Numbered from the stretch's first letter, positions 36,244 through 61,736 are shown. The stretch is 64,000 bases of DNA from an uncultured Acidobacteriota bacterium (GCA_963722765.1 CAVROO010000014.1:450976-514975), one strand, 5' to 3'. Numbers and translations are program-made. The notes: a model not told the origin generated them from the sequence alone.

Positions 36244-36350
36244 AAAATCCGGATGGCGACGGCGGCTTGTCCGCCGTAGCCTTGGCGAAGGTGGAAGCCG
36301 TCCTCCTTTTCCATTCCGGGTTCTTGAGTTCTCGAGTTCTGGAGTTCTTT
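36244..36350 (+). repeat. core-plus-word-arm intergenic element R1 (longest core; GAGTTCT arm)
   Basis: AAAATCCGGATGGCGACGGCGG-cttgt-CCGCCGTAGCCTTGGCGAAGGTGGAAGCCGTCCTCCTTTTCCATTCCGG, then GTTCTTGAGTTCTCGAGTTCTGGAGTTCTTT. Confidence 0.6.
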
Positions 36351-36421
36351 AAACACTGGCCTACAAGTCATTCCATATCATGGGGTTGCAGAATTCAAGC
36401 AAGTGAGTCTAGTATTGGGGC

Positions 36422-37243
36422 ATGATTGCGAGCACGAGCGTGGCCGAGGCGGCTGAAATCGCCATTCCTCAACTGTTGGATCGTCACGGCGGACAAATTT
36501 ACGGTTTGGGACTCCGCATGTGCGGTGACCCGGACGAAGCTCAGGATCTCGTCCAGGATGTGTTCCTGCAGGCGTTCCGAAAGTGGGACCAGTTCGAGGG
36601 ACGCTCGAGCCCTTCCACGTGGCTTTATACGATTGCTGCGCGGGTTTGCCAGAGACGGCATCGTCTTCGTGCCGGCGAGCCACGAAATCTAGAGCCCCTC
36701 ACCACGCTTTTGCCCTCTGGTGACGAAGGTGTCCTCGATCTGCCATCGGATGGAGATACTCCTCAGGATGTTCTGGAGCGCAAGGAGACGCGAGACGCCG
36801 TCCAGCGTGCCTTGATCGGGCTTCCCCCCAAGTTCCGGCTGCCGCTGATCCTGAAAGAGCTGATGGACCTTTCGATCACCGAGATCGCGGAAGTGTTGGG
36901 TCTCAAAGAAGCCACGGTCAAGACCCGTCTACACCGAGCTCGTCTGTTTGCCGCAAAGGAGCTGTCGCGCAATTTGCCCAAACGGTCGGCCCCCCATCCC
37001 GATCATGCTCGAACCGTGTGTTTGGACCTTCTCCAGGCCAAGCAAGAGGCGCTCGATCGAGGCGTTCCATTTCCGGTCCCGCAACAGGAGCTCTGCGTGC
37101 GTTGCCAGTCCCTTTTCGCGACCTTGGATCTTACCAGCGACGCCTGCCATCGGTTGGCCGAGGGGGAGCTGCCGGAACCGGTTCGAGAGGCTCTGCTCGA
37201 GCAAATGAAGCGCTCTTCTAAGCCCCGCCGCCCGAAAAGCTGA
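36422..37243 (+). CDS. ECF-type RNA polymerase sigma-70 factor with about 90-aa Cys-containing C-terminal extension
   Basis: Region 2 reads 'DEAQDLVQDVFLQAFRKW...PSTWLYTIAARVCQRR'. Region 4 reads 'LSITEIAEVLGLKEATVKTRLHRARL'. The extension reads 'HPDHARTVCLDLLQAKQEALDRGVPFPVPQQELCVRCQSLFATLDLTSDACHRL'. Confidence 0.8.
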   Translation: MIASTSVAEAAEIAIPQLLDRHGGQIYGLGLRMCGDPDEAQDLVQDVFLQAFRKWDQFEGRSSPSTWLYTIAARVCQRRHRLRAGEPRNLEPLTTLLPSGDEGVLDLPSDGDTPQDVLERKETRDAVQRALIGLPPKFRLPLILKELMDLSITEIAEVLGLKEATVKTRLHRARLFAAKELSRNLPKRSAPHPDHARTVCLDLLQAKQEALDRGVPFPVPQQELCVRCQSLFATLDLTSDACHRLAEGELPEPVREALLEQMKRSSKPRRPKS

Positions 37244-37342
37244 GTCTCTAGGCACAAATACCCAATACTTGATTCAGGTTGTGTAGTTCATCTACACCCC
37301 ACCAGAAACCACAAATCATTGATGCAAACGGACCTTGTCACG

Positions 37343-37371
37343 GGAACCTTTTTCTCGATACTTGGCTCTAA
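37343..37371 (+). promoter_or_regulatory. candidate ECF (RpoE-like) promoter upstream of the TolC-MFP-RND operon
   Basis: GGAACCT-N17-TCTAA (gGGAACCTttttctcgatacttggcTCTAAcc) lies about 90 nt upstream of ATG 37461. It resembles the GGAACTT/TCTRA ECF consensus. This is a pattern match only. Confidence 0.35.
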
Positions 37372-37460
37372 CCAATCGGCAGCCCGAGACGGTCACCAAA
37401 GAGAAACCTCCATAGAGCAAGCCGAGTGAAATGAAAACGGATAGACATAGGAAAGTGGTT

Positions 37461-38879
37461 ATGCATCAGATACGGATCCAACGGCTCCTGAAGATCACGG
37501 GAGCAAAACTCGCTCTGGCGGCAGCCGTCGTTGCACCTCTGGTGCTCGGGTTGCCTGTTTCCGCTGGGGTCGCGGGAGCACAAGAAAGCCCCCTGACCCT
37601 CGATGAGGCCATCGCGAAAGCCCTTGTGCACAATCCCGACGCCGAAGCGGCACAGGAGGCGGCGAAGGTTGGTGAGGCCCGCCACCAGCAGGCGGTGGCT
37701 CGCTTTTTGCCGCGTGTGGACTACATCGAGTCGTGGAACCGCGGCAACAATCCGGTCTATGTCTTCGGGTCACTTCTCAACCAGGGGAGGTTCACCGAGG
37801 AAAACTTCGCCATCGATCGGCTCAATCATCCCGACGCCGTGAGCAACTATCGTTCACAGTTCGTGTTGCAGCAGCCCATCTTTATCGGGGGCCAGAACAT
37901 CCTCGGACTCGATGGGGCGCGAATCGGTCGCGACATGGCGGAAGAAGGACGGAAACTCACCGAAATGCAAGTCATCTTCCACACGCTGCGGACCTATTTC
38001 GGAGTGCAGGTGAGTGCGGAGAACCTGAATGTCATTGGTAAAGCCCTGGCTAGCGCCCAGGAGGACTTGAATCGAGCTCAGGCTCTTTTCGATTCCGGGA
38101 TGGTGACGGAAGTCGATTTGTTGTCCATCAAAGTCCACCTGGCAGGTCTCAAGGAAGAGCAGATCCGTGCAAAAAACGCTCTCGAAGTCATGAAGGCCGA
38201 GCTCAGTCAAACCGTCGGTGAGCCTCTCGACAGCGAGTTCACACTTCTTACCCCGCTCGAATATCGTGAAAAAAAGGAAACCGGCGGCGTCGTGGAAGAT
38301 CTCGTTGTGTCGGCGATGGAGAATCAGCCGGCCGCCAAGATGAAGAGTCTCGAAGTCGAGTCCATGCGGGTGAAGAAAAAAATGTCACACGCCAACTTCC
38401 TGCCGTCGGTGGCGTTACAGGCCGGTTGGCAGTCGGACCGGGAGAGCTTCACCGGCGACGGCGGTTCGAGCTGGGTCTTGGGATTGGCCATGCAAATCAA
38501 TCTTTTCGAAGGGACGGGAAAATTCGCTCGTGCTTCCGAGGCCGCGGCCGGGTTGAGGAAGGCCGAGGCTGAGAAGAGGAAAGCGGATGACACCATCCGT
38601 CTCGAAGTACGTCGTGCGTACCTGGATCAGGCGGCTGCGGCGGAACGTGTCGAGGTGGCTCGAACTGCAGTGGCACAGGCGAGGGAGAGCCACAGAATCA
38701 CTGAAGCTCGTTACGAAGGCGGGCTCTCTAATGTAACCGAGTTGTTGCGGAGCCAGAGCGCTCTGCTCGATGCGGAAGCCAGGTATCTTGGTGCAATTTA
38801 TGGGGGGCGGCTGGCCGAGGCTCGATTGGAGCTTGCAGTCGGGACGCTTCACAAAGAATCAGAGGCGGTAAAGCCGTGA
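37461..38879 (+). CDS. TolC-family outer membrane efflux protein
   Basis: The signal is followed by 'SPLTLDEAIAKALVHNPDAEAA' and two repeats of coiled-coil/beta segments typical of OEP/TolC. Confidence 0.85.
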   Translation: MHQIRIQRLLKITGAKLALAAAVVAPLVLGLPVSAGVAGAQESPLTLDEAIAKALVHNPDAEAAQEAAKVGEARHQQAVARFLPRVDYIESWNRGNNPVYVFGSLLNQGRFTEENFAIDRLNHPDAVSNYRSQFVLQQPIFIGGQNILGLDGARIGRDMAEEGRKLTEMQVIFHTLRTYFGVQVSAENLNVIGKALASAQEDLNRAQALFDSGMVTEVDLLSIKVHLAGLKEEQIRAKNALEVMKAELSQTVGEPLDSEFTLLTPLEYREKKETGGVVEDLVVSAMENQPAAKMKSLEVESMRVKKKMSHANFLPSVALQAGWQSDRESFTGDGGSSWVLGLAMQINLFEGTGKFARASEAAAGLRKAEAEKRKADDTIRLEVRRAYLDQAAAAERVEVARTAVAQARESHRITEARYEGGLSNVTELLRSQSALLDAEARYLGAIYGGRLAEARLELAVGTLHKESEAVKP

Positions 38880-40024: not shown

Positions 40025-43000
40025 ACGGCCAAAAACTGGGATACGCCGGCAGCATCGCCGCGGCGTTTATCAATTCCAAACTCACGCCTCTCTTCTTGTT
40101 CGGTGCGGTGCTTCTGGGGCTCTTCACGCTCTTGATGCTGCCCCGCGAGGAGGAGCCGCAGATCATCGTGCCCATGTTCGACGTCTTCGCGGCCATGCCG
40201 GGCACTTCTGCCAAGGAGATCGAGCAGCGTGTGACGAGCCCCATGGAACAGCTCTTGTTCGAGATCCCCGGCGTGGAGTACATCTATTCCACCTCGAGTC
40301 CCGGCATGAGCATGGCTATTGTTCGCTTTTTCGTGGGCGAAGATGAAGAGGACTCCGCCGTCCGCCTCATGAACAAGCTCCGGGCCAACTTCGATCGGAT
40401 TCCGTCGGGCGCGATGCAGCCTTTGGTCAAGGTCCGTTCCATTGATGACGTTCCCATCCTGGGCTTGACCTTGTGGAGCAAGCGGTACGACCATTTTCAG
40501 CTGCGGCAGGTCGCCGCCGAGCTCGAGACCGCGATCAAGCAGGTGCCCGACGTCAGCGAAGTGACGATCATCGGCGGCGAGCGCCGGCAGGTTCGAGTCC
40601 TTCTCAACCCGTCGGCCATGGTATCCCGAAACCTCTCACCACTCATGATTGCGGGCGCTCTTCAAGCCTCCAATCGGCTCATCGAATCGGGCTCCTTCGC
40701 TTCGAGCAACCAGGAGTTCAAGTTGGATACCGGCGGATGGCTGCGTGATGTCGAAGACGTTGAGAGTGTCGTGGTCGGTGTTTACGAGAACACTCCGGTT
40801 TTCCTGCGAGATGTTGCCGAGATTCGGGACGGTGGCGAAGAACCTTCCAACTACGTGTTATTTGGTGCCGGCGCCGCAGAGGCGGAGCATCTAGACGCCG
40901 AGGGTGCCGAGTGGCCGGCGGTGACCCTCTCGGTCGCCAAGCGCAAGGGCAAGAACGCCGTGGCGGTCAATCATGCCGTCCTTGCGAAAGTCGACTCGCT
41001 CCGGGGCGACATCATACCCGCCGACGTAGAGCTGACCATCACACGGGATTACGGCGAGACGGCAAAGGAAAAAAGCGACGAGCTCCTACTCCATATGCTC
41101 ATCGCCGTCGTCAGTGTGTCGATATTGATCTGGCTCACCCTGGGGCGGCGGGAGTCGATGATCGTCTTGTTGGCTATCCCTGCGACGCTCGCCTTGACGC
41201 TCGCCGTTTTCTACTTCTACGGGTTCACACTCAACCGTATCACTCTCTTCGCTCTCATTTTCTCTATAGGGATCCTCGTCGATGACGCGATCGTGATCGT
41301 GGAGAACATTGCCCGGCATTGCCGTCTGCCGGAGAACAAGGGCCTGAGCACGGCACAAATTGCGGTAAAAGCCGTGGACGAGGTGGGTAACCCGACGATT
41401 CTGGCGACCCTCGCGGTCATCGCCGCCATCTTACCGATGGCCTTTGTGAGCGGTTTGATGGGGCCCTACATGAGACCCATTCCCATCGGAGCAACGGCCG
41501 CCATGGTGTTCTCGTTGATCGTCGCCTTCGTGGTGACACCATGGGCCACGATTCGACTGCTCAAGTGCGAAGGTGGAGAAGAAGACCATCATCATGTGGA
41601 AAGCGCGAGCACCCGCAAGTATCGGCAGGTGATGGGTAAACTGCTCAGTTCCGACAAACACCGGCGGTTTTTCTTGACCGGTGTGGTGGTCCTGCTTCTC
41701 GGATCCATGGCGCTCGTCGGTATCGGATTCGTCGAAGTCAAAATGCTTCCCTTCGATAACAAGAGCGAGTTTCAGGTCATCGTCGATATGCCCGAGGGCA
41801 CGACTCTCGAACAAACCACGCGTGTGACACGAGCTCTCGCCGATGTCGTCGCGAAACAGCCGGAAGTCACCCACTACCAGGTCTATGCCGGAACCTCTGG
41901 TCCCTATAACTTTAACGGGCTGGTACGACACTACTTCTTGCGACAGGGCTCGAACGTGGCCGATATCCAGGTCAACCTCCTCGAAAAGGGGCACCGGAGT
42001 CTCAAGAGTCACGATATTGCCAAACGGCTTCGAGATGAGCTCCTCCCCGTGGCGGAAGAGCATGGTGCCCACATCAAAGTTTCCGAAGTTCCTCCGGGCC
42101 CCCCGGTGCTCCAGACCTTGGTGGCGGAGATTTACGGCCCCAACTACGAGCGGCAGATGGAGATTGCCGGCCTCGTACGGCAGAAAATGGAAGAGCTGGA
42201 CGGCGTCGTTGATGTGGATTGGTACGTGGAAGACGACCAGCTCAAGTACCGTCTCGTTGTGGATCAAGAAAAGGCCGCGCTCAGCGGAGTGCGGCTCGAT
42301 GCGATTGCGCGGACTTTACGGTTGGCCACTTCCGGTGAGACGGCAGGGCTCCTTCACGATGACAAGGAACAAGAGGACATCCCCATCGTGCTGCAGCTCG
42401 ATCGACCGACACGCTCGGATCTGGAACAGCTCCGCGGTCTGCGCGTCATGAGCCGGAGCGGGAACATGATCAGCGTGGGCGACCTGACTCAGGTTGAGGT
42501 CGTACAGCAAGACAAGAGTATCTATCACAAGAACCTTTTGCCGGTGACCTATGTGACCGCCGACGTGGCGGGAGAAATCGAAAGCCCCGTCTATGCCATT
42601 TTGAAGTTGGGCCCCCAGATCGAGGACATGAAGCTGCCGGAAGGCTACTCCATGGTCCAGTACACGGCCAAGGAGCCCTTTTTCACCGACAAATATTCAA
42701 TGAAGTGGGACGGGGAGTGGCACATCACTTATGAAGTCTTTCGCGACCTCGGGCTTGCCTTCGCTGCGGTGCTCATCTTGATCTACATCCTGGTGGTGGC
42801 CTGGTTCCAGTCTTTTCTGGTGCCTTTGGTGATCATGTCCGCCATTCCGTTCTCCTTGGTCGGCATCCTGCCCGCGCACGGCTTCATGGGAGCCTTTTTC
42901 ACCGCAACGTCGATGATCGGTTTCATCGCCGGGGCGGGTATCGTGGTTCGGAACTCCATCATCTTGGTCGATTTCATCGAGCTCCGGTTGAACGAAGGGA

Positions 43001-43248
43001 TGCCGCTGGACGAGGCAGTCGTCGATGCCGGCGCCGTTCGGTTCCGACCGATGGTGCTGACCGCGGCGGCCGTGGTCGTGGCGGCGGCGGTCATACTGTT
43101 CGATCCGATTTTCCAAGGACTGGCGATTGCCTTGATGGCGGGTGAGGTCGCTTCACTCCTTTTGTCCCGTGTCACGGTGCCCGTCGTCTACTTCATGATG
43201 AAACGGAGACAGTTGAGAACGTCCCCGTCCGGAGGAGAAGCAAAATGA
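40021..43248 (+). CDS. efflux RND transporter permease subunit
   Basis: An intact 1075-aa ORF with 12-TM RND layout ('[17 protein letters not shown]', '[20 protein letters not shown]'). Confidence 0.9.
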
Positions 43249-43306
43249 GCGCGTTTCTTCGGAAGAGGATTTTTGTGATACCAAAATTAGAAAATGGAGA
43301 AAAAAA

Positions 43307-43495
43307 ATGAATGTAGATCGTTATCTTCGGATGATTGCTGGTTTTTTCGTCATGCTCTCCGTAGCTTTGGGCTATTGGGTGAGCCCCTATTTTTTCCTAT
43401 TCACGGCTTTTGTGGGATTGAATCTCTTCCAGTCGTCGTTTTCGAACTGGTGTCCCATGATGACGTTCTTGAAAAAGGCAGGGGTAAAAGGGTAA
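43307..43495 (+). CDS. DUF2892 (YgaP-like) small membrane protein
   Basis: 62 aa: 'MNVDRYLRMIAGFFVMLSVALGYW...GLNLFQSSFSNWCPMMTFLKK' matches the NxDRxxR...G...CP pattern of DUF2892. Confidence 0.7.
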   Translation: MNVDRYLRMIAGFFVMLSVALGYWVSPYFFLFTAFVGLNLFQSSFSNWCPMMTFLKKAGVKG

Positions 43496-43503
43496 AAGGG
43501 GAT

Positions 43504-43575
43504 AGAACTCGAGAACTCAAGGACTCGAGAACTCTGAATGAACTGGAGGGCGGCCGAGCCGCCGCCATCAGGAAA
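43504..43575 (-). repeat. intergenic element R2 (arm then core on + strand; short core)
   Basis: AGAACTCGAGAACTCAAGGACTCGAGAACTC, then TGAATGAACTGGAGGGCGGCCGAGCCGCCGCCATCAGGAAA. It is the reverse orientation of R1/R3/R4. Confidence 0.6.
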
Positions 43576-43633
43576 CCAAGTCTATGAAGATGCCGGTAGA
43601 ACTTAGGTATAAGATGAACGTGTAGGGAGAATA

Positions 43634-43843
43634 GTGATGCCGATTTTCGAGTATCAGTGTCAAGACTGTAATGAGGTCTTCGAATCGCTGCAGTTGAGCC
43701 GCAGTCGCGATGTGGAAACGGAATGTCCTCATTGCGGATCGGACCACACGGAACGCATGGTCTCTTCCTTTGCCACGAGCGGAGGAGGAAACGGATTCAA
43801 TGTCGGCTCGAGCTGCGGACCGAGCGGCTCCGGCTTCAGCTGA
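43634..43843 (+). CDS. FmdB-family zinc-ribbon putative regulatory protein
   Basis: 'MPIFEYQCQDCNEVFE...ECPHCGS' is the CxxC...CxxC FmdB signature. The tail is Gly/Ser-rich. Confidence 0.8.
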   Translation: MMPIFEYQCQDCNEVFESLQLSRSRDVETECPHCGSDHTERMVSSFATSGGGNGFNVGSSCGPSGSGFS

Positions 43844-43945
43844 GGCTAGCGAGACTCACCCGTTGGGTGAGAAAGACCTTTCTTGGGCGGCCCTGTCGCT
43901 ACTGTTTGATGGTGCGACACTGCCGCACCCCTTCACGTCTTTTTA

Positions 43946-44020
43946 TTTCCGGATAACGACGGCAAAGCCGTCCGCCGTTCTCCTTCTGAGTTCTTGAGTG
44001 CTCGAGTCCTTGAGTTCTCT
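43946..44020 (+). repeat. intergenic element R3 (core then GAGTTCT arm)
   Basis: ATTTCCGGATAACGACGGCAAAGCCGTCCGCCGTTCTCCTTC, then TGAGTTCTTGAGTGCTCGAGTCCTTGAGTTCTC. Confidence 0.6.
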
Positions 44021-44030
44021 ATTGAGCTGC

Positions 44031-44768: not shown

Positions 44769-44804
44769 CGTTTCTTCAGCTCGCTGGCAGATCTTCGCGA
44801 CGAT

Positions 44805-46370: not shown

Positions 46371-46470
46371 TCCTACACCAATTTGGGGTCACGTGGGTGA
46401 AAAGGCGAGGAGGCGGGCGCGTTTCAGCCGCCTTGCCATCACGTTATGATGGGCTCCCATGGAGGGAGTT

Positions 46471-49476: not shown

Positions 49477-50180
49477 TTACCGGCTCAGGCTCAGGCAGGG
49501 GCACGGGCTCGGCAAATCCTGATGCGGACGGCGAAAAGCCCCGGCGAAAGAGGACGCCGTCCTCAAGTTCCCTTCTGTCTTCTGCCTTCTGTATTCTGTA
49601 TTCTGTATTCTTTTTTCCCATCTCCGAGATAGTCTTTCAAGGGCGTCGTGGATGCTGCTGAAGGCCAACTCCTCCCAGGGGATTTCTTCCTTTGTGAAAC
49701 AACGAATTTCCAAGCATTCATCGGCCGCTTCGAGCTCATCGTTCAACAGAGCGGCGGCAAAGACGACGACCACGACGGGTACCCCGGGGTAAGAGTAGAC
49801 TCCAACCACCTCACGAAGCTCGACGTCGGCGTTGACCTCTTCCCTGGCTTCGCGGATGGCCGCTTCCTCGACGGTTTCTCCACGATCGACGAAGCCTCCT
49901 GGAAAGACCCACTTTCCGTACCCGGGATCGATGGCTCGACGCCCAGAACGATTTTGCCTCCGTGCTCGAAGATCGTGCAGGCCGCGACTTTCGGATCGAG
50001 AAAGAAAATGAACCGACATTTTGCACATACGAGTCGTTTCGGCTCATTGGGTTTGACTTGCTCGAGACCGAGCCCTCCTCCGCATTTTGGACAAAACCGA
50101 TATTCCTGGTCGGCTAAGCGAGGGTGTTCGATGAATCGTGTTCGCCACGGGATAACCTGCTTGATTGTTTTGACCGTCAA
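49477..50180 (-). CDS. NUDIX hydrolase with N-terminal zinc ribbon; 1 frame disruption, 3' end uncertain
   Basis: Zn ribbon 'CPKCGG...CAKC'. Nudix box '[22 protein letters not shown]'. The shift is at about 49941-49944 (GGG/CCC run). The reading frame runs on through repeat R5 to 49477, so the true stop is doubtful. Confidence 0.7.
49480..49610 (+). repeat. intergenic element R5 (CCGAGC-type arm, core, TTCTGTA-type arm)
   Basis: ccggctcaggctcaggcaggggcacgggctcgg, then CAAATCCTGATGCGGACGGCG...GCCGTCCTCAAGTTCCCTTC, then tgtcttctgccttctgtattctgtattctgtattc. Confidence 0.6.
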
Positions 50181-50218
50181 TCTACCACCCGTCTCCCGGC
50201 ACTGTCAAAGTATCGCCC

Positions 50219-51177: not shown

Positions 51178-51293
51178 CCTGTTTCCGTAGGAAAGTATAT
51201 CTGTAGTATGTTATTAAGTTTACCGGTCATTTACCTTCAAGCCCGCTCGTGGTAGGATGGCCGTAACGCCACGGTGGCGCCGAGGAGTAACAC

Positions 51294-51491
51294 ATGCTTT
51301 TTCCGCTTTTCATCGGTACGCTGGGATTGCCCGAATTACTGATTATTCTCTTCATTTTGTTTCTCATCTTCGGGGCGAGCAAGCTGCCTCAGCTTGGAGC
51401 CGGTCTGGGCGAAGGCATCAAGAACTTCAAGCGTTCCATCAAGGGTGGCGATGAGCTCCCTCCGAAGAGCACAGACGACAAAGACGAGTAG
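51294..51491 (+). CDS. tatA: twin-arginine translocase TatA/E family subunit
   Basis: 65 aa. '[41 protein letters not shown]' is the canonical TatA TM plus amphipathic helix. Confidence 0.9.
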
Positions 51492-51496
51492 CTCGA

Positions 51497-52725: not shown

Positions 52726-52737
52726 CTCTTCCTCTTA

Positions 52738-52819
52738 CCCCTGCCCGAGCCCGAGCCCGCTTGCCCGCCGTAGCCTTGCGTGAAGGCGGAAGCCAGGCAA
52801 AGGCGGGTGCCCGAGCCCG
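52738..52819. repeat. intergenic element R6 (CCCGAGC arms around the CCGCCGTAGCCTTG...GGAAGCC segment)
   Basis: cccctgcccgagcccgagcccg, then cttgCCCGCCGTAGCCTTGCGTGAAGGCGGAAGCCaggcaaaggcgggtg, then cccgagcccg. It shares the inner segment of R1. Confidence 0.55.
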
Positions 52820-52825
52820 ATATAG

Positions 52826-54235
52826 TCAACGTTTAAAAAGCAGAATCCCATCCGCCGTCTCGCGCTCTCCGAGGGGGTCCGAAGGTCGATTGACGGTGGC
52901 ATCCCCTACGAACATAGTGGTCGAACCGCCCCCATCCAGATTGATCGCGGAAACAGCGCCCAACTCGATAAAGAGGTCCGACAACTCTCGGAGTGACATG
53001 CCCACGCTCCTTTCCGGTTGACGTCCATCTACGGTGACGAACAGCATGGTCCCATCGTCTCGTACTCCGATAGCCGTGCGAGGGTGTCGTGAAAGAAAAA
53101 AAACACGGGAGATGTGCTCGTCTTCCGGGTTTTCGACTCGCTGCCCGCCCCGAAGGAGAAGAGGTCCACCCCCGAGGATGAATCGTGTCCTATCCCACTC
53201 GTCGTCCGAGTCCGGGAACAGTGAGACGAGATTCAAAACCGCTTCGACCTTTCCATCCATCTCGAATCGATGCAGGTGCTCTTGGGCCGGGCCGATTCCG
53301 AGAGAAATGACGAATCCCGTGCGGGGAATGGCGGAGCTTCCCTTTTGTGCCTTTATTGCAATGATCCGATTGTCCCGCACGACGACCTCCGCTCCGTCGG
53401 GATGGGTCAATGTCGTACGGTGGAACTCTGGAGTATAGAGGATGATCTCGTCTCGCCCCCGCCGGCGATTGACTCCGGAAAGCCCGATCGGTTCGTCGTT
53501 TCCCACCTCGATGTGGCCGCGAAGCTCGAGTCGTCCGAGAACCATGTGCGTCTCGCCGTTGCGGTCATAGAAGCCGGCGGCGGCGCGACCGCGGTCCGGC
53601 TCGGAAAGTAGGGCCCCATTGATTTGAAGGACTCCGGCGGAGTCGCCGCGGAGAATCCCTTGGCGTAGGAAGTATCCGCCGTTGACCGCAGCCAAAGCTC
53701 CACGGCGGCGCGCCAAGCTGCTCATCGTTTCGAGCCCGATCGCGGCGTCGTATGCGTGAGCGACCTCGACACGAATCGAGGCGGGATCCGCTTCGAGTAC
53801 GTGAATCACCCAGGGACCGTCCGGATTCGTAATGTCGTGTCCGTATTCCTGGATGGAGAGCTGAGATGAAATGTCGGCGCTCGATATGAGCTCGATCGTC
53901 TTTTCCGCCGCGTCACGGTCGGGCAGTCCGTTGACACTCAAAACATAACGGTTGCCTCGGTAGTAGGGTGTTGCGGGAATCCGGGCCGTTTCGAGTTGCT
54001 CGAGCGTCTCGTCCGCACTGCGCTGAGAATCGAAGGCGCCGATGGTAACCCGGTAGGATTTCGCTGTGGACACCGTACCTCGGAGGATCGTGATGTGGTC
54101 GAGTCCTTGCGCAAGCTGTTGCTTTTCGATTTCGGCGCGGACAGTAAAGACGGACGCAGTCAGAGCGGCGGTGAACGCCGCGGTAAAAACCGCAGTGAAC
54201 GCTGCCAGGAACAGATATCTGCCGGATGATTTCAT
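52826..54235 (-). CDS. phosphodiester glycosidase (NAGPA/DUF2233) family protein with SPOR-like domain
   Basis: A signal/anchor is followed by the SPOR-like segment 'YRVTIGAFDSQRSADETLEQLE' and the C-terminal 'AINLDGGGSTTMFV' hallmark. Confidence 0.75.
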   Translation of the reverse strand: MKSSGRYLFLAAFTAVFTAAFTAALTASVFTVRAEIEKQQLAQGLDHITILRGTVSTAKSYRVTIGAFDSQRSADETLEQLETARIPATPYYRGNRYVLSVNGLPDRDAAEKTIELISSADISSQLSIQEYGHDITNPDGPWVIHVLEADPASIRVEVAHAYDAAIGLETMSSLARRRGALAAVNGGYFLRQGILRGDSAGVLQINGALLSEPDRGRAAAGFYDRNGETHMVLGRLELRGHIEVGNDEPIGLSGVNRRRGRDEIILYTPEFHRTTLTHPDGAEVVVRDNRIIAIKAQKGSSAIPRTGFVISLGIGPAQEHLHRFEMDGKVEAVLNLVSLFPDSDDEWDRTRFILGGGPLLLRGGQRVENPEDEHISRVFFLSRHPRTAIGVRDDGTMLFVTVDGRQPERSVGMSLRELSDLFIELGAVSAINLDGGGSTTMFVGDATVNRPSDPLGERETADGILLFKR

Positions 54236-54279
54236 GGCTCGAAGACGAGCTTACAATAAGAAGGAGAAATGGGAAAGGT

Positions 54280-55170
54280 TCAAGGAATTTTCGTCTGCGG
54301 TGGGAGCGCTTCGTTGAGGCTCCCCGTGCGATAACCTTCGAGGTCCACCGTCACGTAGGTATAGCCGAGATCTTTGAAAGTCTTGACGAGGCGGGGGAGT
54401 GTTTCGGGTTGGAACGCTCGAGAGATTTCTTCCGGAGCGAACTCGAGCCGCGCCACCTCGTTGTGATGGCGGACTCTAAAATGGAGGAATCCCATTTCCC
54501 GAAGCGCCTCCTCTCCCGTTTCCACGGTTTGGAGTTTTTCCACGGTGATGGGTACAAGATAAGGGATGCGGGACGACAGACAGGCCGAAGCCGGTTCTTC
54601 GGCAGTGGGCAACCCGGCGATACGGGACAGGTGGCGAATTTCGTCTTTCGTGAGCTCGGCTTCATCGAGGGGGCTCCTCACACCGAGCTCCTTGGCGGCT
54701 TTTCGGCCCGGTCGATAGTCACCCCGATCGTCCGCGTTAGAGCCGTCTACAACGTGGCTAATGTCGCGCTCGTCTGCGACGCTCCGCAGGCGGACGAAGA
54801 GCTCGTTCTTGCAGTGGTAGCAACGGTTGGCATCATTGGTGCGATAAGCGGCGCTCTCCATTTCGCTCGTCGGCACGGAAATATGGGGAATGCCAAAGTC
54901 CGAAACGATACGTCCTGCCAATCGTCGTTGATAGTCGGGGTAGCTCGGGCTTTCACCGGTGACGGCCAATGCTTGATCTCCCAGAACTCGATGAGCTTCG
55001 AAGGCGAGGAAGGCGCTATCGACACCACCGCTGAAGGCTACCAGGACGGATTTCATTTCTTCCAAAATAGAATCGAGACGAGCCCGTTTTTGTTCCGCTT
55101 GCGAGCCGAGCTCTCCCTTCGTATCGGCGGCGTCACGAGCTCCGAGGTTTTCGCTCAAGCTTCCCCCCAT
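54280..55170 (-). CDS. PP-loop ATP pyrophosphatase, LarE/TIGR00268-like
   Basis: 'VLVAFSGGVDSAFLA' (SGGxDS PP-loop) and 'NRCYHCKNELF'. ATG 55170 overlaps the LysW-like gene by 16 nt. Confidence 0.75.
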   Translation of the reverse strand: MGGSLSENLGARDAADTKGELGSQAEQKRARLDSILEEMKSVLVAFSGGVDSAFLAFEAHRVLGDQALAVTGESPSYPDYQRRLAGRIVSDFGIPHISVPTSEMESAAYRTNDANRCYHCKNELFVRLRSVADERDISHVVDGSNADDRGDYRPGRKAAKELGVRSPLDEAELTKDEIRHLSRIAGLPTAEEPASACLSSRIPYLVPITVEKLQTVETGEEALREMGFLHFRVRHHNEVARLEFAPEEISRAFQPETLPRLVKTFKDLGYTYVTVDLEGYRTGSLNEALPPQTKIP

Positions 55171-55328
55171 TCCGCTTCGTCACCTGTTACCAGCTCCAAC
55201 TCGATGGGAGCTATGCTCAAAACGAGCAGGTCGGCGCCGCACTCCGGACAGCCGATCATCTCGCCTTGGTCGACATCCAGATCGTCGAGCTCGATTTCCA
55301 ACTCGCACGCGGGACAAATCGGTAACAT
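55155..55328 (-). CDS. LysW-like zinc-ribbon amino-group carrier protein homologue
   Basis: 57 aa: MLPICPACELEIELDDLDVDQGEMIGCPECGADLLVLSIAPIELELVTGDEAEWGEA. It parallels Thermus LysW (CPxC..G(E)..C..CG..L.V...P..LE...E.EDWGE). Confidence 0.65.
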   Translation of the reverse strand: MLPICPACELEIELDDLDVDQGEMIGCPECGADLLVLSIAPIELELVTGDEAEWGEA

Positions 55329-55520
55329 AATAGCCTCTTTAGGGAATAGATAATCGTGTAGCGGGAAGGGGGCACTTCTATTACATATCAGGTCCAATAT
55401 AAATGTTGATGTGCTCTTACCCGCTATCAATAACGCTGCCGGATTATAACGCTGGCCGGGAACCGGGGCAAGCTTGCCCAAAAGCGCTCCACAACATAAA
55501 ATCATTACTTCACCGCGGCA

Positions 55521-55943
55521 TTGCGGAAAGGGGATGAAGCTGTGAGCGAGTCCAACGAAGCAGCCCGAGCAGTGGTAGATGCGGCCCAACGCATCGCGGC
55601 GGCCTTTGACAGCCATGATGTGGAGAGTCTTTATGCGGCCCACTATCAAGGTCCGGAGACCACTCTGATCGCTCAAGGCGGGGAACGTGTCATTGGCTGG
55701 GCATTGGTTCAGGACGAGCTCGAAAAGCGAGTCAATGAGTTCGAGGTGATCCGCACGAAAATTGACAAACCCGAAGTGATTCTCTTCGGGAATCTAGCCG
55801 TGTTGACCTATGAGCAACATACCAACAGCCGGCTTCACGATATCGATTTCACGTGGGTGGGGTGGGTCACCGATATGTACATCCAAGTCGAAGGTCGGTG
55901 GCTGAGAATTCATCACCAAGCATCCGACCGCAAAAAATCCTAA
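55521..55943 (+). CDS. NTF2-like (SnoaL/DUF4440) family protein
   Basis: About 135 aa. 'AAFDSHDVESLYAAHY...LAVLTYEQHT...WVGWVTDMYIQVEGRWLRIHHQAS' is a typical cone-fold pattern. The start is uncertain. Confidence 0.55.
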   Translation: MRKGDEAVSESNEAARAVVDAAQRIAAAFDSHDVESLYAAHYQGPETTLIAQGGERVIGWALVQDELEKRVNEFEVIRTKIDKPEVILFGNLAVLTYEQHTNSRLHDIDFTWVGWVTDMYIQVEGRWLRIHHQASDRKKS

Positions 55944-55948
55944 CGATT

Positions 55949-56023
55949 AAATCCTGAAGTTGACGGCGGAGCCGTCTTCCGGTTCCATTCTGAGTTCTTG
56001 AGTTCTCGAGTCCTTGAGTTCTC
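55949..56023 (+). repeat. intergenic element R4 (core then GAGTTCT arm)
   Basis: AAATCCTGAAGTTGACGGCGGAGCCGTCTTCCGGTTCCATTC, then TGAGTTCTTGAGTTCTCGAGTCCTTGAGTTCTC. Confidence 0.6.
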
Positions 56024-56033
56024 TAATCCGCAA

Positions 56034-58589
56034 TCAGGGCGTCAGCACCAGCTTGCCTTCCAAGCTTGCCTCGATGCGTCCCCTGTCGAAGAGCATGGGG
56101 TGAGCCTGGCCCTTTAGCCAATCTTGATTTTGGTCGAAGAAGTGGGAGCTCAGCGGATGGCCTGACGCGCCGGTAGGCAAGACGGCCATACTCTCGTCCG
56201 GGCGGTTCAAGTCCACGACCATCCGGAATGATGTGCCCGCAACGGTCTTGAAAGGTTCGGCGAGCGAGACGCGGGCATTGGCGATGGTGAAGCCCGAGCC
56301 TCCGAAGGGGGCGGGACCTCGATTGAACACCCAGTTGAGTGGTGTTTGTTTCCCGAGCGGGTGCTCGAACTCGACGCCGTGCAGTTGCGCCCAATCCCAG
56401 GCTTCCGGATCTGCCCCTTGAAGCTCGGTCAGCATCGCCACAGCCTCGTTCAAGCTCCTTGCGAATATTGTGTTACGGTCTTCGACGGCCGGCGTCGAGC
56501 GGTCGTCCCACCAGGCGGAACTGGGATCATCGATGACACTATAGAGACCACCCGGGAAACCCAATTCCAAAAACTCGAGTAGTTCTAGATAAAGCTCTTC
56601 TCCCAATTCGTCTTGAAACGTATTCTCGATGAGCTTGATGTAGCACGCCTGGTAGAGGGCCGGAGCACCTCCGTCGCTCATCTGACCGTTCCAGGTTCGC
56701 AAGAGGTCGTGAGCCTGTGCGACCTCCGCCTCTCCCGGGTTGATGGACATCAGATGGCGAAGAACCGGTTCGGTCGATCGGTCGTATCGATCGTTTTGGA
56801 TCTGAAGAAGGTCGATGACTCGAACCTGTCCCGCCGTCGCCAAGAGGGTGTTGATTCGTTCGGCTCGAAACGGAGCGAGTTGGTCCCGTCCCAGGGGATA
56901 CTCGGCGTCGTCCGCAACGACCTTATGGTTCGCACTGACGATGAATCCCTCCTCGGGGTTGAAGTAAAAGGGCTTTGCCTCGTGGGGGATGTAGTTTTGC
57001 CATTCAAATGCTCCCGTTGCACCGTCGGTGGGAACGGAGCCGTCGAATCCGATACGGACGGGTATATCTCCGGAAGGGAACCAACCGATATTGCCATCGA
57101 CATCCGCGTAAACAAAGGCCAGAGGGACATTGCCGAGGGATCGCAGTGCCTCTGAGAACTCGAACCAATTGTTGGCCTGATTGAGACGCAAAAAGGCGAG
57201 CGCGTTATCTCCGTTCCACAGGCCGTCCCACCGAAGAGCCAGCACTTTCCCCTCACGGGGTTCATCGGAAACCACGACGCCATGGTGGGTTCGAAGAACC
57301 TCCACCGTCACCGGATCTCCCCCGGCAACTGTAATGTTCTCGTTGAAGGTTTCGAATTCCATCCATTGCTCGCCGGAGGCGTACTGCCGAGAGTTTTCCG
57401 GGTTGAGGAATTCCACGTAATGATCTTGAACATCCGCGAAGGATGCCGTGATTCCCCAAGCGATCCGCTCGTTGTGGCCAATGAGAACGTAAGGGATACC
57501 GGGCAGCGTGGCTCCCGTTACATTGAGTCCTCCGCCTACAAGATGGATCTCGTACCAGAGCGATGGAATAGGAAGCGGAAGGTGAGGGTCGGAAGCAAGA
57601 AGCGGTCCCCCCGTTGCCGACCGGGTACCCGAAACGACCCAAGCATTGCTGGCGCCGCGGCTCGTTTTGAAGTGATTGAGGGCGGTGCGAGAAGGGAGAT
57701 GCTTCGGAATGAGAGCCGCCTCTTCGGTCGGCGGAGGCTCGAGTCCGGTTAGCGCGTAAGCGGCATCGACTCCGATCTTGTCGGAAAGATGAGCGCGAAG
57801 GATCTCGACCGAACCGTTATAGGAAAGAATATGGGACATCCATTTGCCGATGGCCAGGCTATCGGAGGCCTGCCATGGTTCTGGGACGAGCTCGAGAATT
57901 TGGAACTCGGGAGGGAGGTGATCGAGATGTGTTTCCCGGTAAGTGTTGACACCCTCTGCGTAGAGCTCCAGCAGGCCGCGGACGAAGGGATCCATGGATC
58001 CGAGCTCAACCTGTGCCGCGTGGTGGAGTCCGAGGAGCCGAACCTCACGGTCCATCGGCACGAGCTCAGCTCCGAAGAGGTCTGCCATCCGGCCGGTTCC
58101 AAGTCTTCTAATGAGCTCCATCTGGAAATAGCGATCCTGAGCATGGACGAAGCCGGTGGCGCGAGCCAGGTCCTCGAGGCTCGAGGCGTAGATGTGTGGG
58201 ACCCCGTTTGGGTCGCGCAGCACTTCCACCGGTGCGGCGAGTCCCGGCAGGCGAAGCTCGCCCTCGGTCTGAGGTAAGGATGCACTACCCCGATAGTAGA
58301 TGTACCCACCTGCGGCGGATGCAAGCAAGACAATAGCGAGGAGAAACAGGGAGAACCAAGGTTTCCCCTTGGACTTGGTGCGGGGCGGACGGCGTGGTGG
58401 CCCTCCCCCTCTTCCGTCCCCGACCGGCAGGTCGAGGCGACGATTTGGCTCCCGGGCGAGGAGCGGTTGGCTTCCGGCCCGGAATCGTCGGCCGTTTCCC
58501 CGGCGTCGGAGTTTTCCTTCCTGGTGGGCGGGGCAGGGGCGGACGAGGTCCGCCCAGTAACGGCTCACGACGGTCAATGGCCATGTCAC
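56034..58589 (-). CDS. penicillin acylase family (S45) Ntn hydrolase, membrane-anchored
   Basis: An intact ORF of about 850 aa with a TM segment 'WFSLFLLAIVLLASAAGGYIY'. The processing/nucleophile site is 'RGASNAWVVSG'. The Arg/Pro-rich N-terminus makes the exact start uncertain. Confidence 0.85.
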   Translation of the reverse strand: MTWPLTVVSRYWADLVRPCPAHQEGKLRRRGNGRRFRAGSQPLLAREPNRRLDLPVGDGRGGGPPRRPPRTKSKGKPWFSLFLLAIVLLASAAGGYIYYRGSASLPQTEGELRLPGLAAPVEVLRDPNGVPHIYASSLEDLARATGFVHAQDRYFQMELIRRLGTGRMADLFGAELVPMDREVRLLGLHHAAQVELGSMDPFVRGLLELYAEGVNTYRETHLDHLPPEFQILELVPEPWQASDSLAIGKWMSHILSYNGSVEILRAHLSDKIGVDAAYALTGLEPPPTEEAALIPKHLPSRTALNHFKTSRGASNAWVVSGTRSATGGPLLASDPHLPLPIPSLWYEIHLVGGGLNVTGATLPGIPYVLIGHNERIAWGITASFADVQDHYVEFLNPENSRQYASGEQWMEFETFNENITVAGGDPVTVEVLRTHHGVVVSDEPREGKVLALRWDGLWNGDNALAFLRLNQANNWFEFSEALRSLGNVPLAFVYADVDGNIGWFPSGDIPVRIGFDGSVPTDGATGAFEWQNYIPHEAKPFYFNPEEGFIVSANHKVVADDAEYPLGRDQLAPFRAERINTLLATAGQVRVIDLLQIQNDRYDRSTEPVLRHLMSINPGEAEVAQAHDLLRTWNGQMSDGGAPALYQACYIKLIENTFQDELGEELYLELLEFLELGFPGGLYSVIDDPSSAWWDDRSTPAVEDRNTIFARSLNEAVAMLTELQGADPEAWDWAQLHGVEFEHPLGKQTPLNWVFNRGPAPFGGSGFTIANARVSLAEPFKTVAGTSFRMVVDLNRPDESMAVLPTGASGHPLSSHFFDQNQDWLKGQAHPMLFDRGRIEASLEGKLVLTP

Positions 58590-58609
58590 TCACGGATTGG
58601 TTCTCCCGG

Positions 58610-59107
58610 TCATTTTGAGCCTCCGCGTTTTCGGACGTAAGTCCCGCTTTTGCCTCCGGACTTTCGAATGAGACGGATATCACTAACGACCATGGACCGA
58701 TCGGCCGCTTTGATCATGTCGTAAAGCGTGAGAGCGGCGACGGAGACCGCCGTCAGTGCTTCCATCTCCACCCCGGTTTTGCCCGTGGAAACCGCGCGTG
58801 CTTCGATCTCGAAACCCGTCCCTACGTCCACGATTGCGATATCGACATGGTCCAGGGGCAAGGGATGACACAGTGGGATGAGCTCCGATGTTTTCTTAGC
58901 GGCCATGATCCCCGCCAGTCGTGCCGTCTCAACAACGTTGCCCTTGGCGATTTGACCCGCTCGAACCGTCGCCATCGCGTCCGGCGCAACATGAATCTTA
59001 CCCGCGGCAATGGCCTGTCTCTTTGTGGACGCTTTCCGGCTCACGTCCACCATGCGGGTACGCCCGGTGGACGAAACGTGCGTCAGCTTTGACGTTCGGC
59101 GTGCCAC
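58610..59107 (-). CDS. moaC: cyclic pyranopterin monophosphate synthase MoaC
   Basis: 'THVSSTGRTRMVDVS', 'ELIPLCHPLPL' and 'KTGVEMEALTAVSVAALTLYDM' are MoaC hallmarks. Confidence 0.9.
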   Translation of the reverse strand: MARRTSKLTHVSSTGRTRMVDVSRKASTKRQAIAAGKIHVAPDAMATVRAGQIAKGNVVETARLAGIMAAKKTSELIPLCHPLPLDHVDIAIVDVGTGFEIEARAVSTGKTGVEMEALTAVSVAALTLYDMIKAADRSMVVSDIRLIRKSGGKSGTYVRKRGGSK

Positions 59108-60336
59108 AAGTCCTCTTTGAACAAAAAGCTATCCAACGGGTAGACCCGAGTGATTTGTCCGGCCTCGAGGAGCTCTTTGTCTTCGGGCAGGACGAGTAGT
59201 GCGTTGGCTTTGGAGAAGGCCACCATATCGCCGGAGCCGCGAGTGGTGATGGGATGGGCCGCGGGCAAATCCCCCGTCTTTGTTATCCGGCTCGAGCCAG
59301 CCGGGTAGGTAAGCGCGGCGTGGGCCTCGGCTTGCCAAAGGCCCTTTGAGTACGGCGCGGAGATACGGCCGCCAAGGCCGGTCCGAGCCCGCCATTTTTG
59401 CCAAGCGCCGGTCGAACAAAAAGCTCGAAAGTCACCATCGTCGAGACGGGATTTCCCGGTAGTCCGAATACCGGGGTTCCGTTGGGTGCGATGCCGAACA
59501 CGGTGGGTTTTCCCGGCTTCAAGGCGATCTTGTCGAACAGAATCTTGATGTTGAACGCGGCCAAGACCTCCTTCACGAGGTCGAATAGTCCCATGGAGAC
59601 TCCGCCGGAGAGTATCAGCAAGTCATGGCTGAGACCTTTTTCGATGAGCTCGGTAAGCGACGTTTTATCGTCGGTTGCCACCCCGAGGTCGGTTACGGGC
59701 GCCCCGAGGGCGCGGGCCTGGGCGGCGAGAGAAAAGGTGTTGCTGTTACGTATTTGTCCCGGCTGCGGCTGCTCCGACGGAGAGACGAGCTCGTTTCCGG
59801 TTGCGATGATCGCCACCCGTGGACGAGCGCCCACGCGCAATCGGGTCTTACCGACGGTCGCCGCCACGGCTACCGCAGCTGTATCCAGTGTGGTGCCTTT
59901 CTTGAGCACGCGCTCTCCGCGCCGCACTTCGGCTCCACGAGGGACGATGTTCTCGCCTGCAGGAACCGGCTCCAGGATCTCGACCATTTCATCATGGCTT
60001 TTTGTGCTTTCCACTTTTTGGACCGCGTCCGCGCCGTCAGGAACCGGGGCGCCGGTCATGATCCGCGCGGTTTGCCCGGGTCCGATGCCAAAAGATGGAA
60101 ACGTACCGGCTGGAATAACGCCCGCGATTTGAAGGCGTGTCGTGGGCGTTTTCAAGTCTTCGGACCGCAGAGCGAACCCGTCCATAACGGAGCGTGGAAA
60201 TGGAGGGATATCGATATCCGAGGGGACATCTTCAGCCAAGACTCTACCCTGAGCCTCTCGGAAGTCGACACTCCTCCGTTGGCAAGCGCGGGACGTGCGC
60301 GAGGACGGTATCGAGTGCTTCGTCTACGGGAATCAA
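59083..60336 (-). CDS. moeA: molybdopterin molybdotransferase MoeA; 3 frame disruptions
   Basis: TTG 60336 LIPVDEALDTVLAHVPRLPTEE / VDFREAQGRVLAEDVPSDIDIPPFPRSVMDGFA ... ILSGGVSMG ... KPGKPTVFG / AKMAGSDRPWRPYLRAVL / DLPAAHPITTRGSGDMVAFSKANALLVLPE. Shifts lie at about 60268-60275, 59395-59399 (T5) and 59271-59275 (C5). Confidence 0.8.
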
Positions 60337-60410
60337 TTTATCACCTGAAGATCTTGATCGTATACCGAAGATAACAATAATCGCAACGGGGAGAAGGACT
60401 TGGCGCGGAA

Positions 60411-60478
60411 AGAGACAGAATCAGAACTCAGGAGACAGCAGGAACTCGGAGTGCGGGAGGCGCCATCAGGCGGATCTG
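60411..60478 (-). repeat. intergenic element R7 (mixed GAGTTC/TTCTG arm then short core on + strand)
   Basis: agagacagaatcagaactcaggagacagcaggaactcggag, then tgcgggaggcgccatcaggcggatctg. The reverse complement begins CAGATCCGCCTGATGGCGCC. Confidence 0.5.
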
Positions 60479-60509
60479 TTCGTAGGCCAGGCTGTGCATG
60501 GCAAATTGC

Positions 60510-61555
60510 CTACCTGTCGTCCATCAGGCGGGAGAGTTTTTCTTCCAGCTCTTTGACTTTCTTGCGTAGACGGCCAATGGATCGGATCTCCGCCTGTGCT
60601 CGCAGAACATCCCGGTGGGGGCGGGCCGGGTAGCCCGATACCTTGGCGCGAGGCGGAATGTTACCGATAACGCCGGATTGGGCGATGCAGATTGCTTCGT
60701 CACCGATCTGCAGATGATCGACGAGGCCTACCTGGCCGCCCATCATGACGCGTTTGCCGATAACCGTACTTCCCGAGATCCCGGTCTGGGCCGCCATGAC
60801 CGAGTCCTCACCGACCTGGACGTTGTGCGCGATGTGAACCATGTTGTCCAGTTTCACGCCTCGGCGGATGAGGGTGTGACCGATGGTTCCTCGGTCCACC
60901 GTGGCATTGGCGCCGATCTCCACGTCGTCCTCGATGACCACGATTCCGACGTGACGAAGCTTGATGAACTTGCCGTCGCGACGCGCATAGCCGAATCCGT
61001 CTGCGCCTATGACGGCGCCTGGGTGAATGATCACGCGCGACCCGAGTCGGGATCCCTGACGGATCACGACATTGGGCCAAATGAGACAGTCATCGCCCAG
61101 TTGAACGTCGGATTCGATCTTGACTCCCGGATGGATGGTGGTGCGCTCTCCAATCGATGAGTTTGCCCCGATGTAGGCAAAGGGCATGACTCGAGACGCT
61201 TTGCCGATGCGGGCCGACTCCGCGACAAAAGCCAGAGAGTGGACACCTTCTTCATGGGGAGGGTCATCGGGAGGGTAAAAGAGCCCCATGAGCTCGGCGG
61301 CAGCGAGAAAAGGATCGGGCACGAGGATCTGAGGTACTTCGAGCTCCTGCTGATGTGATGGCGGTAAGGAGCGCGCCGGCGCGAGTTTTGGCTAGCGCGG
61401 CCGCGTAGGCAGGTCCCGGAATAAAAACTGATGTCTTTCGGTCCGGCGTCCACGAGAGACGACAGACCGCTTATCTCGACATCGTTCTCGCCGACCAGCT
61501 CACCCTTCAGACGGGCGGCCAGTTCATCGAGCTTGAATGCGCGCTTGGCCTCCAA
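60510..61555 (-). CDS. lpxD: UDP-3-O-acylglucosamine N-acyltransferase LpxD; 2 frame disruptions
   Basis: N-terminal '[38 protein letters not shown]', then (other frames) '[21 protein letters not shown]' and the left-handed beta-helix hexapeptide region '[38 protein letters not shown]...'. Shifts lie at 61423-61427 (A5) and about 61355-61370. Confidence 0.8.
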
Positions 61556-61639
61556 AACCTTCTCGTCTCTTCTTCTCTACGTGGCGGGAATTCTATGGAA
61601 GGTGGATCGGGAAGTCAATCATGGTGTATAGAGATTCGA

Positions 61640-61716
61640 AGTCAGTCAGCCGGAGATCAGATAGTCAGTCAGGGAATAGTGAGAACGGCTCTCGCCGTTC
61701 GTCTTCTGGATTTGAG
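61640..61716 (-). repeat. intergenic element R8 (GTCAG-word arm then core on + strand)
   Basis: agtcagtcagccggagatcagatagtcagtcaggg, then aatagtgagaacggctctcgccgttcgtcttctggatttgag. The reverse complement begins CTCAAATCCAGAAGACGAACGGCGAGAGCCGTTC. Confidence 0.55.
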
Positions 61717-61736
61717 TCTGCCAGGCACAGCCTGGC

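Follow-up and report, generated by a model that had tools for sequence, protein, structure and literature searches.

What kind of sequence recurs between the genes of a 64,000-nucleotide stretch of DNA from an uncultured soil Acidobacteriota bacterium (GCA_963722765.1 CAVROO010000014.1:450976-514975)? An earlier note on this stretch, here called the window, had described eight copies (R1 to R8) of an intergenic element in which a conserved stem-loop core is followed by an arm of short repeated words. In this study we show that these stretches lead to a real, abundant and lineage-specific repeat family, with ∼150-180 copies of a small non-coding unit of hairpin and words in the soil acidobacterial genome. 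The window is C14:450976-514975 of the source assembly (G000; 6.5 Mb, 46 contigs, 57% GC, 73% complete). We favour, with a probability of roughly 0.55, the reading that the family is a lineage-specific non-coding repeat resembling repetitive extragenic palindromes (REP) and bacterial interspersed mosaic elements (BIME), that it carries a word array of the type known from short tandemly repeated repetitive (STRR) sequences, and that it has spread as a unit in the 3' flanks of genes.

The size of the family was determined in two ways. A covariance model of the conserved hairpin core (H1), built from 50 aligned short-loop copies taken genome-wide, gave at least 147 matches in G000 (150 candidates scored), and a census with nhmmer gave 176 core loci. 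The core is followed by GAGTTCTY octamers (W1 arms) at 105 of these 176 loci and by TTCTGNN heptamers (W2 arms) at 54; among the 17 others, some are followed by CTGACTG words, a rare third arm flavour, and some are partial matches on insert-bearing cores. Counted from the arm side, GAGTTCTY arms occupy 169-171 separate sites of the genome, with both core halves upstream at 91 sites and the right half only at 19. Only 13 of 171 W1 arrays lie within called open reading frames (ORFs), and the core loci lie outside called genes with few exceptions. The dispersed intergenic family of stem-loop core and word arm that had been proposed is hence real; it does not dissolve under statistical treatment, being far beyond chance, and it is much larger than the eight copies from which it was first described.

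All of those eight stretches are present in the sequence, and their consensus, the arm flavours listed for them and an inner segment common to R1 and R6 had been given correctly. A scan of the window with the core model (filters off, up to E <= 10) found the core in six of them, R1-R5 and R8, which in a common orientation read TAAATCC-GGA(A/T)GAC-GACGGC-[loop]-GCCGTC-CTCC..TTCC(A/C)TTC, followed by tandem words; R1, R3 and R4 were also grouped independently by a repeat search (family D5). The other two were rejected as members. R6 has no match to the core model and belongs to another hairpin family, H3 (CCGCCGTAGCCTTGGCGAAGGCGG, 67 copies), and R7, too degenerate to match at E <= 10, is at best a decayed copy.

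The core family is restricted to one lineage. A model scan of the genome and its relatives had been suggested as a check on the family. Against the many copies in G000, 60 relatives drawn from its own family, order and class yielded no core in 59 cases and a single weak match in the last, G016. Nor did the covariance model find a convincing core in 652 kb from other array-bearing genomes (best E = 0.44). No Rfam family was matched: Rfam 15 gave nothing at the gathering threshold over the whole window, and at E <= 1 the stretch 43400-44100, which holds R2 and R3, gave only a weak off-target InvR match lying mostly outside the elements. A literature search with the word strings returned nothing relevant. 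A phage origin was rejected, as 2.9 million viral contigs gave only 5 matches.

Each unit consists of a TAAATCC end, a GACGGC/GCCGTC hairpin and three to five words. The left end of H1 reads TAAATCCGGA... and is without GTAG. The inner stem is Watson-Crick paired in 512 of 546 cells, and a C-C mismatch that adjoins it is itself conserved, with further pairs beyond. In the resulting 13-pair structure both sides have changed in 8 pairs, compared with 3.5 ± 1.2 in shuffled data (none of 500 shuffles reaching 8), and 79% of cells are paired, falling to 30-48% when the partner is slid. The hairpin is thus maintained by compensatory change. At the level of single positions, conservation reaches 90% or more in 21 of the 43 core columns. 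In the arm, four to five words are the most frequent length. The eighth base of the octamer alternates between C and T in 166 of 251 cases where 125 are expected, so that the true unit of the arm is 16 nt long and holds CTCGAG palindromes, which are predicted to be able to fold a small second hairpin. The common array words of G000 are all variants of CAGAA/CRAGAA on the A-rich strand, and in this sense the consensus unit is free of stop codons in all frames.

Mismatches within the stems (30 G-T and 25 A-C) are about equal in number, and the stems are therefore uninformative as to which strand matters. It might be possible that the element acts as DNA, with phased TTCTG/TTCTYGAG words binding a protein (of the nucleoid, of recombination or as a roadblock) and the hairpin serving as a cruciform or single-stranded site. 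The mismatch counts, in which wobble favours no RNA strand, would agree with this, as would the fixed phase of the words at 7-8 bp and their alternating 16-bp unit. However, the polarity described below tracks gene direction and stop position, which is hard to explain for a site in double-stranded DNA, and no candidate protein is known. We consider a role of this kind very improbable.

The arms show a marked polarity with respect to the neighbouring genes. This polarity towards the adjacent stop codon is a new result of the present analysis and, together with the restriction of the core to a single lineage, had been missed before. Based on rough gene calls from a codon-usage model, the arm side is turned towards a gene 3' end for 111 of 158 arms and, when loci are defined by the core, for 109 of 155 (p = 4.5e-7); for the core side the count is 81 of 155 and not significant. 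The distance between arm and stop codon is mostly -3 to +20 nt, and in ∼25 cases the stop forms the start of the first word itself (TAGAACTC). On the opposite side, where the core meets a convergent gene, 15 of 44 core ends fall within -2 to +6 nt of its stop, so that the TAA of TAAATCC is at that stop or only a few bases off. The arms of arrays with an H1 core (65:22), with only its right half (12:4) and with no core (34:21) all share the preference; 30% of the copies are reversed or stand beside 5' ends. Copies in plus and minus orientation alternate along the contigs and their orientation follows the local gene, so a link between orientation and replichore was rejected.

Several copies in the window illustrate this arrangement. 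The arm of R2, TAGAACTCGAGAACTCAAGGACTCGAGAACTC on the plus strand, begins 7 nt past the TAA (43493-43495) of a small plus-strand gene, while 11 nt beyond the arm of R3 stands the stop codon of the minus-strand gene 44031-44768. The small gene between R2 and R3 has no record elsewhere. R4 occupies a convergent spacer of 90 nt, from the TAA at 55941-55943 of a plus-strand gene to the TCA at 56034-56036, which is the stop of the minus-strand gene 56034-58577. The arms of R2 and R4 are 100% complementary over 24 nt (inverted pair I23 of the repeat search). In R5 the open frame of the minus-strand gene 49477-50019 spans the whole element, and elsewhere in G000 the frames of upstream genes likewise enter or cross the arm (C10:35713-36096, C21:258261-259331, C21:257648-258229 and C28:133184-133804), with tails such as KNSRTQELENS and KNSRTQELENSRTRE. 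Either the stop codon has been displaced by the element in these cases or the gene ends are easily mis-annotated.

With a GC-rich hairpin directly past stop codons, the units could be taken for ordinary, possibly bidirectional terminators of a lineage with few canonical ones, immobile and kept alike by gene conversion. The types of spacer would fit this, since of the 158 arms 53 lie between convergent genes, where they are over-represented, and 21 between divergent genes, where they are rare. Moreover, a U-rich arm (CAUUCUGAGUUCU...) comes after the hairpin when the unit is approached from the core side, and the scanned stretch shows no clear excess of canonical terminator-like sites (27 compared with 18.6 ± 4.9 in shuffled sequence). 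In co-directional spacers, however, the majority orientation (58 against 26) puts the A-rich array first and leaves only the tail GGAUUUA after the hairpin, which is the poorer orientation for a terminator of the upstream gene. Fold energies of whole units are unremarkable and only modestly better than those of shuffles (z = 0 to -2.6), a consensus terminator scan calls no unit, and orthologous sites checked in relatives are without an equivalent hairpin. Taken together, these results leave plain terminators an improbable explanation.

That the units have moved is suggested by the way their parts are combined. When arm flavours were mapped against cores, a check that the earlier note had also proposed, they sorted by core subtype: cores ending in CATTC pair with W1 arms (62:8) and those ending in CCTTC with W2 arms (34:3), and the loop GAGTCATCGA is found in 15 of 43 W2 copies but in only 4 of 79 W1 copies. 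The arms are not copy-specific, as had been supposed, but come in three flavours tied to core subtypes. As core, loop and arm subtypes co-occur, core and arm have spread as one unit, and the flanks of the most similar copy pairs are unrelated (∼25% identical). The copies also form mosaics: H3 hairpins are nested in core loops, copies of a second small repeat (REP-B, see below) stand beside arms or between stop codon and arm, W1 and W2 arms are concatenated, and an alternative stem (H4) occurs with the same end and arm. No copy pair exceeds 87% identity while about half of the core columns are highly conserved, which indicates that the copies are old and under position-by-position constraint. 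This constraint could stem from a function in the host or from recognition by a mobilising enzyme. A recent burst was rejected on the same identity limit.

How such a unit might insert is a separate matter. Target-site duplications, for which the earlier note had advised a test, did not emerge: 3-base matches between the flanks were found in 5 of 85 copies where 3.6 are expected (p = 0.26), giving no significant direct repeat. The left boundary is sharp, (A)(not A)TAAATCC, and can be written (C/G/T)TAAATCC, with T at 77% and A at 74%; a TA often follows directly after the arm, and stop codons coincide with both ends of the unit. Along with lineage restriction and high copy number, these features might point to a miniature inverted-repeat transposable element (MITE), a deletion derivative of an insertion sequence (IS) that inserts at TA or TAA/TAG, would therefore often hit stop codons and regenerates them with its own ends (A... 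on one side, ...Y on the other). Against this, the missing duplication is joined by ends that are unrelated to each other: terminal inverted repeats are absent, TAAATCC... and ...GAGTTCTY not being complementary. No IS or gene with these ends was found in the 73% complete G000, and insertion at TA in random orientation would not yield a polarity of 70:30. A MITE origin hence appears to have a low probability.

According to the reading that we favour, a REP/BIME-like repeat with a word array, the units would spread, or would once have spread, by a copy-and-paste process that leaves no duplication, based on a single-stranded DNA hairpin or similar to that of REP sequences. The word array would abut the upstream gene's stop, in many cases overlapping it or providing it, and the unit would be transcribed as the start of the 3' untranslated region (UTR), in the order stop-(AGAACUCR)n-hairpin-GGAUUUA. 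At the opposite end, a convergent gene could use the TAA of TAAATCC as its stop. Tolerance by the upstream gene, in its transcript as in its reading frame, would act as a filter on orientation and decide where the units persist. The RNA hairpin may form a 3'-end barrier or a weak terminator; it probably shapes the 3' end of the mRNA.

Several observations weigh against this reading. No partner enzyme or autonomous copy was found in G000; as the assembly is 73% complete, this is weak evidence. Of the two Y1_Tnp (PF01797) genes in G000, none has H1, arms or REP-B at its flanks, while PF13366 and PF05635 are absent from the same incomplete assembly. Genes of the GxxExxY/PDDEXK_3 and 23S-IVP types are absent from G000, PDDEXK_3 genes also from G002 (the second genome described below), and the only genes bracketed by inverted arms in G000 are four housekeeping genes. 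A metagenome scan for strain-level empty sites gave only distant relatives of <=66% identity, and no near-identical copies that would indicate recent movement were found (maximum 87%). The position-specific conservation is equally compatible with mobility and with selection acting on individual copies. As to the proposed effect on the transcript, the hairpin is without a canonical U-tract, and the consensus terminator scan of 43000-62000 calls none of R2-R8. Finally, a stop-proximal, sense-polar array occurs in another genus without the hairpin, which suggests that the array may have a role of its own.

This other genus is represented by the Acidobacteriota metagenome-assembled genome (MAG) MFD09964.bin.1.111 (G002), which belongs to the same family as G000 and has the octamer array without the core. 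The octamer pattern gave 53 matches in G002 and none in 39 other relatives. At the loci examined, an ORF of 128-508 aa ends -2 to +31 nt upstream of 14 of 16 arrays, read in the AGAACUC sense; in the other sense, no credible ORF ends upstream at the same loci. A stable hairpin follows only ∼5 of the 16 arrays and is thus not a general rule. Since these hairpin-less arrays share the polarity, it belongs to the array itself. It might therefore be possible that the arrays are a functional sense-strand signal of the 3' UTR, in which three to five words bind an RNA-binding, decay or termination factor, that the hairpin is the standard 3'-end partner of this lineage, and that copies are kept by selection gene by gene rather than by mobility. 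All arm flavours share CAGAA/CRAGAA, which dominates the array vocabulary of the genome, four to five units are preferred, and the polarity holds with the H1 core, with its right half and with no core. The position-specific conservation in spite of old copies would also be expected. The same stop-proximal placement on the coding strand and the same preference for four units are known from other heptamers, most of which are transcribed (PMC4692102).

Positions in the two genera, however, do not agree with a signal kept gene by gene. Orthologs of array-bearing G002 genes were sought in G000, and 1 of 8 carries the element, no better than chance. The spacer orthologous to that of R4 is element-free and measures 42 nt in G001 and ∼98 nt in G002, compared with 90 nt here. 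At the loci compared, element sites are not conserved between genera, which points to insertion rather than to a conserved site. Furthermore, the neighbouring genes that we saw are a functional miscellany, 30% of the copies are reversed or beside 5' ends, and no candidate binding protein has been identified. The A-rich words match no binding motif known to us (CsrA GGA, Hfq ARN, Rho YC), which also counts against a signal. We regard the functional signal as unlikely; the polarity found across genera and the position-specific conservation nevertheless keep it alive as the chief rival. A wider version of this idea, that CAGAA/CRAGAA sense arrays after stop codons are a widespread, unrecognised 3'-UTR signal of soil bacteria, would have them read by a multivalent RNA-binding factor once translation has ended, independently of a hairpin, and packaged with a hairpin into a spreading unit in the present lineage. 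We find it clearly unlikely. Among the matches listed, the octamer array is found in many phyla (Vicinamibacteria, Chthoniobacterales, Planctomycetota, candidate-phyla bacteria, and variants in Bacteroidales), and some of these matches are likely coding or chance tandem repeats.

Related words were observed in other settings as well. In MAG loci of Chthoniobacterales/Verrucomicrobiae (L048, L064, L084, L092, L094, L033 and L071) they form symmetric foldbacks, with inverted (AGAACTCR)n and (GAGTTCTY)n arrays around a centre of 35-50 nt. The array-bearing genome G064 has PDDEXK_3 (GxxExxY) genes that are flanked by other words. In the MAG 'bacterium isolate 6_bin.52' (L129, L132, L134-L138) there are seven PDDEXK_3 genes, most of them bracketed by locus-specific arrays, and these seven loci share the upstream motif CGGCAACG...CGATAA(C/T)G.

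The genome of G000 harbours further small repeats. REP-B (GTAGGCCAGGCTGTGCCTGGC, GTAG plus palindrome) is present in ∼130 copies, among them 61720-61740 (-) and 60482-60502 (+) in the window. Its GTAG end points towards the gene 3' end in 82 of 115 cases, and in 27 cases the upstream gene ends on the TAG of GTAG itself, as gene 61737-62102 also appears to do. As REP-B is unrelated to H1 and also sits on stop codons, stops look like a preferred lodging place of this genome's small repeats. The H3 hairpin family, (C)TTGTCCGCCGTAGCCTTGGCGAAGGCGGAAGCC, occurs alone, flanked by CCCGAGC, beside REP-B or within about a dozen H1 loops, and in 44 of 57 cases a gene 3' end adjoins its 3' side. H4, the alternative core, has ∼10 copies with the stem CGAGGCGC-GAAG-GCGCCGAG, whereas its left end, of TTCC.GAT type, and its octamer arm are those of the H1 design, which gives the impression of a stem swap. 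The window also holds another repeat of ∼100-290 nt, made of GGGACAGGTCCC-type palindromes between A/T runs (D2, D4, D7, I2-I11), and a tandem duplication of ∼700 nt (26581-27287 and 28688-29386, 2.1 kb apart, 78-95% identity; D1, D3, D6). The positions of the elements are collected in Table 1.

Table 1. Copies of the hairpin-and-word unit, look-alikes and other repeats; positions refer to the window, and those with a contig prefix to G000
Feature	Position	Strand	Description
R1	36245..36349	+	core 36245-36316 (left half AAATCCGGATGGCGACGGC, right half GCCGTCCTCCTTTTCCATTC; H3-type hairpin nested at 36264-36296), GAGTTCTY arm 36317-36349; model match 36253-36310, E = 0.011, with 31-nt insert in loop; genome match C14:487220-487291
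R2	43503..43576	-	arm 43503-43534, core 43536-43576, E = 7e-6
R3	43945..44019	+	core 43945-43986, arm 43988-44019, E = 7e-9
R4	55948..56023	+	TAAATCC end 55948, core 55949-55990, arm 55992-56023, E = 5e-11
R5	49517..49611	+	core 49517-49575 with 20-nt loop insert, E = 1.4e-3; right arm of (TTCTGNN)n heptamers, ∼49572-49611
R5 left words	49480..49512	.	GGCTCAG/GGCTCGG, reverse complement of the CCGAGCC flavour, read directly
R8	61640..61713	-	core 61669-61713, CTGACTG-type arm 61640-61672, E = 8e-3; arm flavour also found after other cores in G000
R6	52738..52819	.	H3 hairpin CCGCCGTAGCCTTGCGTGAAGGCGG between CCCGAGC words; non-member
R7	60411..60478	-	degenerate look-alike, mixed words and TCCGCCTGATGGCGCC; membership unsupported
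Possible further decayed core	20915..20962	+	ACATCCGGAA-30 nt-TTCCATTC, model E = 0.43
H4 copies	C14:286711, C16:161054, C17:74485, C25:138599, C28:103918, C33:44799, C37:19521, C45:20116, others		alternative core
GGGACAGGTCCC-type repeat	11912-12203, 21402-21693, 26198-26304, 48270-48336		three direct and one inverted partial copy

STRR sequences, the heptamers of Xanthomonas and the TAACTGA repeats have been known for decades, and neither their function nor their mode of spread is agreed upon. The family described here adds several handles on these questions: an array co-inherited with a hairpin, a rule that places the array on the sense strand touching the stop codon, and the same rule in a second genus that is without the hairpin. 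If the arrays are read on the mRNA they would be a new kind of 3'-UTR element; if they are selfish they would provide an example of small repeats that settle on stop codons without harm to genes. Under either reading gene-end annotation is affected, because some open frames run into the arrays.

Among known systems, REP sequences and BIMEs come closest. REP hairpins of gamma-proteobacteria occur in mosaics with other motifs, form the doublets known as REPINs and are connected with REP-associated tyrosine transposases (RAYTs). The design of core and word arm had been thought to be without precedent, but this does not hold, as the combination of several hairpin modules into mosaics is the classical feature of BIMEs. 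Like REP and BIME sequences, the units are short imperfect palindromes in extragenic positions, with hundreds of copies, mostly after genes and specific to a lineage. They share the mosaic habit (H3 in the loop, REP-B adjoining, word arms), the hairpin kept by compensatory change and the lack of target duplications. Unlike them, the H1 palindrome is without a 5' GTAG, which in this genome marks the separate REP-B family, and it bears a one-sided tandem word array with a strong stop-codon polarity. In contrast to REPINs, H1 units are single hairpins, inverted pairs being rare exceptions. No RAYT flanked by H1 units was found either (two PF01797 genes in a genome that is 73% complete).

The word array in turn resembles STRR-type sequences. 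The heptamer arrays (GGGAATC / GGGGAYT) that Rehm et al. (2015, PMC4692102) reported from Xanthomonas and Nostoc prefer four units, lie close to stop codons on the coding strand and are mostly transcribed. The arrays of the present family agree with these in being dispersed tandem words of 7-8 nt, mostly outside genes, with about four units, scarce between divergent genes and not linked to IS elements, and in their stop-proximal arms (109/155 facing the 3' end here, 14/16 in G002). They differ in being A-rich on the sense strand. The words GAGTTCTY, TTCTGNN and CTGACTG contain no G runs on either strand, and the idea of G-quadruplexes is therefore inapplicable. They differ also in that array and conserved hairpin are physically linked and co-inherited. 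TAACTGA direct repeats, found in marine Beggiatoaceae, Cyanobacteria and Bacteroidetes, precede start codons by a few nucleotides (MacGregor 2015, PMC4679880). These too are one short word in 2-6 tandem copies at well over 100 intergenic sites, patchy among phyla and without a link to transposons (PMC4679880), whereas the arrays here closely follow stop codons and come with a hairpin attached. With the Chthoniobacterales foldbacks the family has the GAGTTCTY words in common; there the elements are symmetric and the arrays themselves form the stems, whereas here a separate conserved hairpin carries a single array. In conclusion, what sets this family apart is a hairpin joined to a one-sided array, with neither G-tracts nor GTAG, and a polarity rule that it has in common with a hairpin-less second genus.

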